A stretch of 64,000 nucleotides of DNA from Shigella phage ESh24, in sequence record ON528734. One strand, written 5' to 3'. A model generated the notes under the pieces. It saw only the letters and a list, made by a program, of their open reading frames with translations, was not told the origin of the DNA and made no database searches. Of this stretch, positions 4,527 through 57,098 are shown piece by piece (position 1 is the stretch's first letter; each line of letters opens with the position of its first letter). A program made the translations under genes and the position numbers.

Positions 4527-4549
4527 GGACTCCTTCGGGAGTCCTTTTT
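4527..4549 (+). terminator. intrinsic terminator hairpin (UUCG tetraloop) after soc
   Basis: GGACTCCTTCGGGAGTCC followed by T-run. Confidence 0.7.
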
Positions 4550-5996: not shown

Positions 5997-6462
5997 TGAA
6001 GTAGCAAAATTATATTCAATAGAATTTATGTCTAAAGAAGGTAAATCAGTAAATACACTTGATAAAAAATGCTCATTAATTATTCCTTTAGCAGAAAATC
6101 CGGATATTTTAATTAAAGATATAAAAGAAAGAAAATATCCAGAAAATGTTATTCTAATTATAAAGCATACTGAAGATATTTTGCAAAATACAGATTCACC
6201 ATTTTCTTCTTCTGAAGCTTTAACTATTAAAGGCTATAAAAGAGCTCATGAATATGGTCTTTTTGACATGTTTGAAGACGATAAAGTTAAATTAGCGAGT
6301 CAACCTTCTAAAAGTAAAACATTCATTATTGAAGATATTAAAGATATAAATGCATTTGTTAGGATGGTCTGGGCTCATTTTGATGTTGGACTACGCTGGA
6401 GAATGTCCGAAGAAGAAAGAAAGATTGTTGAAGCTAATCGTCAATTTGGTTTTTATCGCTAG
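5992..6462 (+). CDS. hypothetical protein
   Basis: 156-aa ORF. Confidence 0.5.
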
Positions 6463-8029: not shown

Positions 8030-8065
8030 ATAGTAGTCAAACCGTCCGTAAGATGTGAGAAAAAT

Positions 8066-12493: not shown

Positions 12494-12570
12494 TAGTTTA
12501 CAAACTCTTGGGACCAGAGTATAATGGTCCTGTGGAGTATAAAAATCTTTTTAACAAGTGAGAGATAACT

Positions 12571-14726: not shown

Positions 14727-14753
14727 ATTCCCGAAACCAAACGAGGATAAGTG

Positions 14754-16571
14754 ATGATTAAGAATGAAATTAAAATTCTGAGCGATATTGAACATATCAA
14801 AAAGCGTAGTGGCATGTATATTGGCTCTTCTGCTAATGAAATGCATGAGCGCTTTCTGTTTGGTAAATGGGAAAGTGTTCAGTATGTACCTGGTCTTGTT
14901 AAGCTTATTGATGAAATTATCGATAACTCAGTAGATGAAGGTATTCGTACTAAGTTTAAATTCGCGAATAAAATTAATGTTACCATTAAAAATAATCAGG
15001 TAACAGTTGAAGATAACGGTCGCGGTATTCCACAAGCGATGGTTAAAACACCTACCGGTGAAGAAATTCCTGGTCCAGTTGCTGCTTGGACTATTCCAAA
15101 AGCAGGTGGTAACTTTGGCGATGATAAAGAACGTGTCACCGGTGGTATGAATGGTGTTGGTTCTAGTTTGACAAACATTTTTTCTGTGATGTTTGTCGGT
15201 GAAACTGGCGATGGTCAAAATAATATTGTAGTTCGTTGTTCAAATGGCATGGAAAATAAATCATGGGAAGATATTCCTGGAAAATGGAAAGGAACTCGTG
15301 TTACTTTCATTCCAGATTTTATGTCATTTGAAACTAATGAGCTGTCCCAAGTTTATCTTGACATTACACTGGATCGTCTCCAGACGCTTGCTGTAGTTTA
15401 TCCTGATATTCAATTTACCTTTAATGGTAAAAAGGTTCAGGGCAATTTTAAGAAATATGCACGACAGTATGATGAGCATGCTATTGTTCAAGAACAAGAA
15501 AATTGTTCTATTGCGGTTGGTCGTTCACCGGATGGATTTCGTCAATTAACTTACGTGAATAACATTCATACTAAGAATGGTGGCCATCACATTGATTGTG
15601 TTATGGATGATATTTGTGAAGACCTTATTCCACAAATCAAACGTAAGTTCAAAATTGATGTCACTAAAGCACGTGTCAAAGAATGTTTGACTATCGTTAT
15701 GTTTGTCCGTGATATGAAAAACATGCGATTTGACTCTCAAACTAAAGAACGACTTACTTCTCCATTTGGCGAAATTCGTAGTCATATTCAACTTGATGCT
15801 AAAAAGATTTCACGTGCTATTTTAAATAATGAAGCAATTTTAATGCCAATTATTGAAGCTGCTTTGGCTCGTAAATTGGCGGCAGAAAAAGCAGCAGAAA
15901 CTAAAGCAGCTAAAAAGGCTTCTAAAGCTAAAGTTCATAAACATATTAAAGCGAATCTTTGTGGTAAAGATGCTGACACTACATTGTTCTTAACCGAGGG
16001 TGATTCAGCTATCGGATATCTTATTGATGTTCGCGATAAAGAACTTCATGGCGGTTATCCATTGCGTGGTAAAGTTCTTAATAGCTGGGGTATGTCATAT
16101 GCCGATATGCTTAAAAACAAAGAACTATTTGATATTTGCGCAATCACTGGATTGGTTCTTGGTGAAAAAGCTGAAAACTTGAATTATCATAATATTGCTA
16201 TTATGACCGATGCTGACCATGATGGTCTAGGAAGCATTTATCCTTCTCTTCTTGGATTTTTTAGTAATTGGCCAGAACTGTTTGAGCAAGGAAGAATTCG
16301 CTTTGTCAAAACTCCTGTAATCATCGCTCAGGTCGGTAAAAAACAAGAATGGTTTTATACAGTCGCTGAATATGAGAGTGCCAAAGATGCTCTACCTAAA
16401 CATAGCATCCGTTATATTAAGGGACTTGGCTCTTTGGAAAAATCTGAATATCGTGAGATGATTCAGAACCCAGTATATGATGTTGTTAAACTTCCTGAGA
16501 ACTGGAAAGAGCTTTTTGAAATGCTCATGGGAGATAATGCTGACCTTCGTAAAGAATGGATGAGCCAGTAG
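14754..16571 (+). CDS. 39: DNA topoisomerase II large subunit gp39, fused form (ATPase plus Toprim region; no separate gene 60)
   Basis: 605 aa continuous ORF with GyrB-like ATPase motifs and Toprim region; T4 has split 39+60. Confidence 0.9.
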   Translation: MIKNEIKILSDIEHIKKRSGMYIGSSANEMHERFLFGKWESVQYVPGLVKLIDEIIDNSVDEGIRTKFKFANKINVTIKNNQVTVEDNGRGIPQAMVKTPTGEEIPGPVAAWTIPKAGGNFGDDKERVTGGMNGVGSSLTNIFSVMFVGETGDGQNNIVVRCSNGMENKSWEDIPGKWKGTRVTFIPDFMSFETNELSQVYLDITLDRLQTLAVVYPDIQFTFNGKKVQGNFKKYARQYDEHAIVQEQENCSIAVGRSPDGFRQLTYVNNIHTKNGGHHIDCVMDDICEDLIPQIKRKFKIDVTKARVKECLTIVMFVRDMKNMRFDSQTKERLTSPFGEIRSHIQLDAKKISRAILNNEAILMPIIEAALARKLAAEKAAETKAAKKASKAKVHKHIKANLCGKDADTTLFLTEGDSAIGYLIDVRDKELHGGYPLRGKVLNSWGMSYADMLKNKELFDICAITGLVLGEKAENLNYHNIAIMTDADHDGLGSIYPSLLGFFSNWPELFEQGRIRFVKTPVIIAQVGKKQEWFYTVAEYESAKDALPKHSIRYIKGLGSLEKSEYREMIQNPVYDVVKLPENWKELFEMLMGDNADLRKEWMSQ

Positions 16572-16600: not shown

Positions 16601-16626
16601 TAATTTGGGCAAATGAGGATATTGAA

Positions 16627-26566: not shown

Positions 26567-26846
26567 ATGATTATTGATTCTCAATCTGTGGTTCAATATA
26601 CAATCAAAATTGATATTCTAGAAAAGCTATATAAGTTTTCTACCAAATTTATACCATTCAATTGTTAATGAATTAGTTGAAGAATTACATCTTGAGAATA
26701 ACGATTTCTTGATTGGAACTTATAAAGACCTCTCAAAAGCAGGATATTTTTACGTAATTCCAGCTCCAGGAAAAAGTATTGATGATATATTAAAAACTAT
26801 AATGATTTACGTCCATGATTACGAAATTGAAGATTATTTCGAATGA
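26567..26846 (+). pseudogene. arn: arn-like acidic ORF interrupted by a +1 frame break
   Basis: ATG 26567 with RBS AAGGGGAAGG; frame stops after 33 codons at 26666-26668 while the +1 frame continues 60 more codons to TGA 26844-26846; combined about 92 aa. Confidence 0.4.
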
Positions 26847-41076: not shown

Positions 41077-41101
41077 GGGGACCCTAGAGGTCCCCTTTTT
41101 A
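41077..41101 (+). terminator. intrinsic terminator after gene 32
   Basis: GGGGACCCTAGAGGTCCCC + TTTTT. Confidence 0.7.
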
Positions 41102-50425: not shown

Positions 50426-52013
<1,588 letters not shown>

Positions 52014-55399: not shown

Positions 55400-55639
55400 A
55401 TGCTGCTAAGTGAAAAACCGATTACTGTTAAAGAATTCCAAGAAAAAGTTAAGTTATTTGCACAGGAATTGGTAAATAAGGTTTCTGAACGATTTCCTGA
55501 AACATCGGTTCGTGTTATTACCGAAACTCCTCGTTCAGTATTAGTAATTGTGAATCCAGGTGATGGCGATCAAATATCGCATCTTAAACTGGATTTTGAT
55601 GGATTAGTTGAAGCACAAAGGGTGTATGGCGTACTATGA
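55400..55639 (+). CDS. hypothetical protein
   Basis: 79-aa ORF. Confidence 0.45.
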   Translation: MLLSEKPITVKEFQEKVKLFAQELVNKVSERFPETSVRVITETPRSVLVIVNPGDGDQISHLKLDFDGLVEAQRVYGVL

Positions 55640-55974
55640 TGAATTTAACTGATATAATTGATAATTGTCTTGAAAATGATACTGGCGATCATAGAGCGCT
55701 TGATTCTGAAACAGCACAGTTCATTAGAATAACTTTAATGAATGATACTCTGGTGAATAGTATTCATCCTTCTGTGTATGATGCTATTATTGTGACGAAG
55801 TATCCAGTTGAGCTTCACAAAAAGATGGTTGGCGCAATTTTTATTGATAAGAAAAACCGCTTTAAAGACGGGCAGAATATAATTAGTTCTATTATTAAAA
55901 GTATAACTAAACTTCGTCACGAAATTTATCGTGTTGAAACTGCTAAATCTGCTTATCTGGTGATTATGAAATGA
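55636..55974 (+). CDS. hypothetical protein
   Basis: 112-aa ORF. Confidence 0.45.
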   Translation: MMNLTDIIDNCLENDTGDHRALDSETAQFIRITLMNDTLVNSIHPSVYDAIIVTKYPVELHKKMVGAIFIDKKNRFKDGQNIISSIIKSITKLRHEIYRVETAKSAYLVIMK

Positions 55975-56552
55975 AAGCGAGTACAGTACTTCAAATTGCA
56001 TATTTAGTATCACAAGAATCAAAATGTTGCTCCTGGAAGGTAGGAGCAGTAATTGAAAAGAATGGACGTATTATTTCTACTGGGTATAATGGTTCGCCTG
56101 CCGGTGGTGTGAACTGCTGTGATTATGCTGCCGAGCAAGGTTGGTTGTTGAATAAACCTAAACATACTATCATTCAAGGTCATAAGCCTGAATGCGTATC
56201 ATTTGGTTCAACTGATCGCTTTGTCTTGGCGAAAGAACACCGTAGCGCTCACTCTGAATGGTCGTCTAAAAATGAAATTCATGCTGAACTAAATGCAATT
56301 TTGTTTGCTGCACGAAATGGTTCTTCTATTGAAGGTGCTACTATGTATGTAACACTTTCTCCTTGTCCAGATTGTGCAAAAGCGATAGCTCAATCTGGTA
56401 TTAAAAAGCTGGTTTATTGCGAAACATACGATAAAAATAAACCTGGCTGGGATGATATTCTGCGAAATGCAGGTATTGAAGTGTTTAATGTTCCTAAGAA
56501 AAACTTGAATAAGTTAAACTGGGAAAATATCAACGAATTCTGTGGTGAATAA
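55971..56552 (+). CDS. cd: dCMP deaminase
   Basis: 193 aa; cytidine/dCMP deaminase Zn motifs HAELNA and SPCPDC. Confidence 0.9.
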   Translation: MKASTVLQIAYLVSQESKCCSWKVGAVIEKNGRIISTGYNGSPAGGVNCCDYAAEQGWLLNKPKHTIIQGHKPECVSFGSTDRFVLAKEHRSAHSEWSSKNEIHAELNAILFAARNGSSIEGATMYVTLSPCPDCAKAIAQSGIKKLVYCETYDKNKPGWDDILRNAGIEVFNVPKKNLNKLNWENINEFCGE

Positions 56553-56789
56553 TGAAATTTCGTTTGGTAAAGCTCACAGCAATTAGTTCTTATTCTAATG
56601 AGAACATCTCGTTTGCTGTAGAGTATAAGAAATATTTTTTTCTCTAAATGGAAACAGTATTATAAAACTGATTGGACTAGTATTGATAGACCATATAGTT
56701 GGAAATCTGATTTAGAAAAATGCCAAAAATTACTTTCCACTCTTAAAGAACGTGGAACAACTCATATTAAAACTGTAATAGGTAAATAA
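56552..56789 (+). pseudogene. small ORF broken by a frame change in a T7 homopolymer (31.2 position)
   Basis: frame stops after 31 codons at 56645-56647 right after TTTTTTT (56635-56641); +1 frame continues 47 codons to TAA 56787-56789 abutting next ATG. Confidence 0.35.
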
Positions 56790-57098
56790 ATGAAACTGAC
56801 AACTGAGCAGAAAGTAGCAATTCGCGAAATTTTGAAAACTAAATTGTCCATGGGTGTTTCAAACGTAGTTTTTGAAAAGTCTGATGGTACTATTCGTACT
56901 ATGAAAGGTACTCGTGATGCAGACTTTATGCCAACCATGCAAACCGGTAAGTTGACTGAATCTACTCGGAAAGAATCTACGGATATGATTCCAGTATTTG
57001 ATGTTGAACTTGGTGCATGGCGAGGTTTTTCTATTGACAAATTGATTTCCGTTAATGGTATGAAAGTTGAGCATTTACTCCAATTTATTGGTAAATAA
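56790..57098 (+). CDS. hypothetical protein (31.1 position)
   Basis: 102-aa ORF. Confidence 0.5.
   Translation: MKLTTEQKVAIREILKTKLSMGVSNVVFEKSDGTIRTMKGTRDADFMPTMQTGKLTESTRKESTDMIPVFDVELGAWRGFSIDKLISVNGMKVEHLLQFIGK

Follow-up and report, generated by a model that had tools for sequence, protein, structure and literature searches.

Classical hot spots of Streisinger slippage are runs of A in the rII and lysozyme genes of bacteriophage T4, and the Streisinger frameshift mechanism was reportedly first described for T4 itself. [quoted passage not shown] Selection against transcriptional slippage can be seen in many bacteria only once a run reaches about nine A or T (Baranov et al., 2005, PMC1088944), and error frameshift suppression in Escherichia coli amounts to 1–10% in aggregate, a figure measured for −1 events (PMC10861913). 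The closest described gene is T4 gene 31.2 (NP_049827; Y13C, 9.4-kDa protein in the cd–31 region), which fills the interval between cd and 31.1 in the T4 genome (NC_000866), is 237 nt long and encodes 78 aa annotated as a hypothetical protein. A literature search using 'gp31.2' and the T4 gene names found no paper on gene 31.2.

The DNA analysed here (the window) comprises 64 000 nt of one strand of Shigella phage ESh24 (ON528734). It is a segment of a Tequatrovirus (T4-like phage) in reverse orientation relative to the T4 reference. The locus of interest lies at approximately 55 971–57 098 and contains the following features, where T5, T6 and T7 denote runs of five, six and seven T.

55971–56552, + strand: cd (dCMP deaminase, 193 aa), from the ORF list and the T4 annotation of the orthologous region.
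56552–56647, + strand: 5′ fragment of gene 31.2, cut short after 31 codons (MKFRLVKLTAISSYSNENISFAVEYKKYFFL) by a premature TAA, from the ORF list and tblastn with T4 proteins.
56635–56641, + strand: T7 homopolymer, the frameshift site, one T longer than the T6 of T4 and the relatives checked, from alignments.
56643–56789, + strand: 3′ fragment of gene 31.2, read in the +1 frame as 48 codons (SKWKQYYKTDWTSIDRPYSWKSDLEKCQKLLSTLKERGTTHIKTVIGK) and TAA, from tblastn and a frame scan.
56790–57098, + strand: gene 31.1 (102 aa, WYL_2/Sm-like SH3 β-barrel), intact, from PF10902 (E = 1.1e-20) and the T4 annotation.

The last A of the cd stop codon (TAA, 56550–56552) is the first base of the 31.2 ATG at 56552 (TAATG), giving a one-base overlap, and the ORF ends in AAA TAT TTT TTT CTC TAA, with the stop codon at 56645–56647. 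An ORF that begins in the cd stop codon and ends right after the T7 at 56635–56641, as given in the original prediction, is therefore seen in the sequence. The +1 frame stays open between 56622 and its TAA (56787–56789), and the ATG of gene 31.1 (56790) follows directly; the earlier description of this frame as running to a TAA that abuts the next ATG stands, but its length of 47 codons has to be corrected to 48 sense codons, counted from TCT at 56643. When one T was deleted in silico an ORF of 237 nt was obtained, the product of which, foreseen as about 78 aa, is exactly 78 aa and equal in length to T4 gp31.2. A single uninterrupted ORF of approximately 77–82 aa is a trait of the family, and the window copy is split into 31 and 48 codons.

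The two fragments were identified by tblastn with T4 proteins. Residues 1–30 of the 5′ fragment are 100% identical to residues 1–30 of T4 gp31.2, and the 3′ fragment is 94% identical to residues 29–78. The restored 78-aa product matches phrog_2010 (unknown function) over positions 1–77 of 78 (E = 4.7e-41), and Pfam family PF26895 (Phage_T4_Y13C) has a precomputed match on the homologues P0001–P0006; searches of the restored protein against NCBIfam and a copy of Pfam-A that did not include the PF26895 model gave no matches. Phage G9062 has the same arrangement as T4 at this locus, and in T4, G9062 and the other relatives examined a T6 run and one 78-aa ORF occupy the orthologous place, in line with the proposal that a single gene with a product of about 78 aa is interrupted by an additional T in a homopolymer. 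A three-way alignment places one extra T in the window, with a mean identity of 98% elsewhere. The gene order cd, 31.2, 31.1 (WYL_2), gene 31 is conserved in T4, G9062, RB3 and 20 metagenomic or genomic contigs, and the exact cd protein was found in thousands of public contigs. The ORF after cd is T4 gene 31.2, a member of the 78-aa family PF26895, and as written it is a disrupted allele. It shares with the T4 gene its position, the TAATG overlap, the TAA–ATG junction and the restored length; the T4 gene has T6 and encodes 78 aa, whereas the window copy has T7 and encodes only 31 aa as written. Many GenBank records label 31.2 and 31.1 'tail fiber protein' or 'phage tail fibers', which looks like propagated automatic mis-annotation; in RefSeq 31.2 is labelled a hypothetical protein and 31.1 an SH3 β-barrel fold protein.

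The PF26895/31.2 family is narrow. An exhaustive HMMER search over 1.84 billion representatives added no more than two 50%-identity clusters, of 77 and 82 aa; one protein with PPR-like repeats also appeared and was discarded as a spurious match. The most conserved part of the family is the motif KK.FFS.W, which is invariant down to 44% identity, and the T run lies within its codons. A structure predicted using AlphaFold2 from a five-sequence alignment (mean pLDDT 53.7, pTM 0.39) was too poor for a fold search; this low-confidence model suggests three N-terminal β-strands followed by a helix at residues 47–66.

The 7T allele is private to the window. A 501-nt query around the site matched 500 phage records at 90–99% identity, with 501 query bases aligned to 500 record bases in the best matches. 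A 54-nt 7T query centred on the run also matched 500 phage records, none of which reached at least 99% identity (0/500) and 391 of which differ only by a one-base gap. To reach more divergent records, tblastn was run with a 40-aa peptide spanning the junction, of which a frameshifted record could match at most half. The peptide was found in one piece, with at least 80% coverage, in 518 of 520 records; the comparison with T4-type orthologues that had been proposed alongside the original prediction thus never gave two short ORFs, these 518 records being in frame across the junction. The exact 7T pattern had no match in IMG/VR, metagenome contigs or GTDB genome contigs, and the 6T pattern was found in 3 and 4 contigs. 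The PF26895 gene is intact in each of the 20 contigs recovered via identical cd or 31.1 proteins, with a product of 78 aa in 19 of them and 79 aa in the other. The 31-aa truncated product is not on record.

Across the fetched loci the run was T6 in 26 cases and T5 in one. The T5 copy is in an independent T4-like Logan contig (L017; SRR19902444, 73 964 bp; positions 6001–6162). Its 53-aa product (P0006), which is listed among the 50%-identity representatives, is frameshifted at the same run in the opposite direction. Taken with the T7 of the window, this contig indicates that the run takes indels in both directions, but rarely. P0004 and P0005 are other truncated 31.2 variants, so that the gene is occasionally broken at other places too. 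The remainder of the window copy is well preserved: 180 records have a junction peptide with 100% identity to the restored one, and all three substitutions specific to the window in 31.2 are synonymous. Since 31.2 shows no secondary decay outside the run, the extra T either arose very recently or is not real.

The window was searched for comparable lesions. Runs of at least seven identical bases number three, all T7 and none A7, compared with 21 T6 and 48 A6. When 115 T4 proteins were compared with the window using tblastn, clean one-base frame breaks were found only in 31.2 and arn. In arn (26567–26846), an anti-restriction gene encoding an inhibitor of McrBC, TTT has become TTTT at 26636–26639, leaving a 33-aa ORF (26567–26668) with the remainder in the +1 frame up to 26843; this +T allele is also private (0/484 phage records). 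The mention in the original prediction of a second interrupted small accessory ORF in the window fits arn, the other clean frame break among the proteins compared, and arn is probably the ORF that was meant. A further private insertion (TT to TTT at 16604–16606; the same sequence in 0/504 records) is intergenic between rIIA.1 and the topoisomerase gene, where it lies between a TATAAT-like box and a GAGG ribosome-binding site. One-base differences were piled up against T4, RB3, BCH953P4 and HEMP5, with gaps left-normalised because BLAST places a gap at either end of a run. This gave seven isolated 1-nt homopolymer indels in conserved context between the window and the four relatives. For four of them the window allele was found elsewhere, as follows.

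Indel at 41095: window allele in 30 other records.
Indel at 12541: window allele in one other record.
Indel at 4544: window allele in three other records.
Indel at 8039: window allele in one other record.

These four are ordinary polymorphisms of public phages. The remaining three, at 16604, 26636 (arn) and 56635 (31.2), are private insertions, each of one T on the + strand. Separately, cd.2 (55400–55639) has one G fewer than T4 near its 5′ end (at about 55433), and an upstream ATG gives an intact product of 79 aa compared with 76 aa in T4. Among the 20 contigs found through cd, two also carry a 79-aa product here, so that this is a natural alternative N-terminus and not a break.

Some larger differences from T4 were recorded in the same comparisons. 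The large subunit of topoisomerase II (14751–16571) is one continuous ORF of 606 aa; it lacks the 39/60 split of T4, neither the insert carrying mobA and 60.1 nor gene 60's 50-nt translational bypass region is present, and the T4 alignment jumps from 3911 to 2793. The T4 mobile-endonuclease genes segF, mobE, segG and mobA have no counterpart in the window by tblastn, nor do 30.7, 30.8, nrdB.1, dexA.1, 60.1, alt.-3, ac and the T4-type gene 38, and gene 37 is only about 34% identical to that of T4. The missing genes and the divergent gene 37 are an instance of the mosaicism typical of T-even phages, here with a different receptor-binding tip of the tail fibre.

Our preferred reading, to which we assign a probability of roughly 0.5, is that the extra T is a real, private +1 insertion in the T6 run of 31.2. 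Strand slippage during replication of the phage DNA (the Streisinger mechanism) would have extended T6 to T7, and the insertion would be recent and tolerated because 31.2, an early accessory gene co-transcribed with cd, would be dispensable under the conditions of propagation. Replication, and not sequencing, is the most likely origin of the extra T. The window allele at four of the seven homopolymer indels is confirmed in independent phages, so that the assembly appears to be generally sound at homopolymers. Both frame-breaking indels fall in small genes that are known to be dispensable (arn and 31.2) and none falls in an essential gene. The two remaining private +T sites involve runs as short as 2 and 3 bases, in which consensus homopolymer errors are uncommon at high coverage. 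The same observations count against a sequencing or assembly artefact, to which we nevertheless give serious weight at somewhat less than even odds: the phage would truly have T6 and an intact 31.2, and the deposited consensus would over-call the homopolymer by one T. No homopolymer class in the window is longer than T7, the 7T occurs in no other genome or contig, and the otherwise perfect conservation of 31.2 is what an artefact would show. That the three private insertions are all +T on one strand could be the mark of systematic base-calling error; the T5 of the automated Logan assembly may itself be an assembly error at the run; and a search for a second, independent assembly of this phage found none, the contigs with identical cd or 31.1 all being less than 98% identical. 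Against an over-call, the other two T7 runs (for example that at 50943, aligned to T4 rnlA) show no indel relative to T4, and frame breaks are confined to 31.2 and arn among the 115 proteins compared.

If the run is read as deposited, ribosomes starting at TAATG would produce a 31-aa peptide ending at 56645–56647, which according to the model would contain only the predicted N-terminal β-strands and not the C-terminal helix, and the function of gp31.2 would probably be lost. An error-level +1 slip of tRNA-Phe on UUU UUU C, or the loss of one U by RNA polymerase, would restore the wild-type KYFFSKW, so full-length gp31.2 could be made from 7T as a small fraction at most, in traces that come from error-level suppression. 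Little polarity is expected on 31.1 and gene 31, since AGGT lies 7–10 nt 5′ of the 31.1 ATG and gene 31 has its own ribosome-binding site. That either form of slippage would yield the exact wild-type protein is also what recommends functional recoding (+1 frameshifting or transcriptional slippage), as does the suppression level in E. coli, although that level refers to −1 events; a phase-variable switch toggling between six and seven T could likewise draw on the public variation of the run in both directions (T5, T6 and T7). We consider recoding or such a switch to be very unlikely. Sites of this kind are conserved across relatives, whereas here more than 500 relatives have a plain in-frame T6; the RNA 3′ of the run (121 nt from 56620) folds no better than shuffled sequences (z = −0.16); one codon separates the 0-frame TAA from the slip site, to which it is not adjacent; and seven bases are few beside the approximately nine at which selection is seen. 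Neither a conserved two-frame arrangement (0/500 records with 7T) nor a stimulatory element was found, and a programmed frameshift was rejected for its lack of conservation and of RNA structure. With T6 in more than 500 genomes, one T5 and one T7, the run is far from the frequent toggling of a contingency locus, and the suggestion of phase variation in the original prediction is not borne out: T6 is essentially invariant in public genomes, the sole other length is the single T5, and T7 occurs nowhere else. More speculative still is the idea that the T6 run is a mutational switch with which T4-like phages recurrently turn 31.2 off (T5 or T7) when it is counter-selected, for example when a host defence senses its product, 7T being leaky through +1 slippage in the manner of a 'savior indel'. 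Finally, the raw ORF layout, with the downstream frame ending in a TAA directly before the next ATG, could be taken for two distinct small genes with products of 31 aa and about 47 aa. This reading is refuted: ATG, GTG and TTG do not occur in frame in the downstream (+1) fragment, which offers only ATT and ATA, both pieces align end to end with one 78-aa T4 protein, and every orthologue is a single ORF in frame.

The 7T lesion affects a known accessory gene and is a textbook case of frameshift by homopolymer slippage; it is ordinary whether it is a knockout or an error. An annotation should describe the locus as gene 31.2 carrying a frameshift, either as a pseudogene or as sequence to verify, and not as two hypothetical ORFs. 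If the frameshifts in 31.2 and arn are real, the phage would be a natural double knockout of the two genes, both would be confirmed as dispensable on its host, and a mutant would be ready made for work on gp31.2 function. The practical value lies in annotation and quality control, with no bearing on an open mechanistic question.

Compared with the known systems, the run shares with transcriptional slippage at A or T runs (PMC1088944) and with 'savior' indels (Atkins et al., 2016, PMC5009743) that it is a homopolymer indel from which slippage could regenerate the wild-type protein. It differs from them in having only seven bases, an arrangement found in no relative and no stimulatory element, and nothing indicates that compensation is in use at this run. 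The Streisinger hot spots were defined by laboratory crosses, whereas the event in the window is seen in one consensus sequence, where it is not separable from a base-calling error; in its form it matches them, one base being added to six identical ones in a T4-type phage, and the same run loses one base in the T5 assembly.
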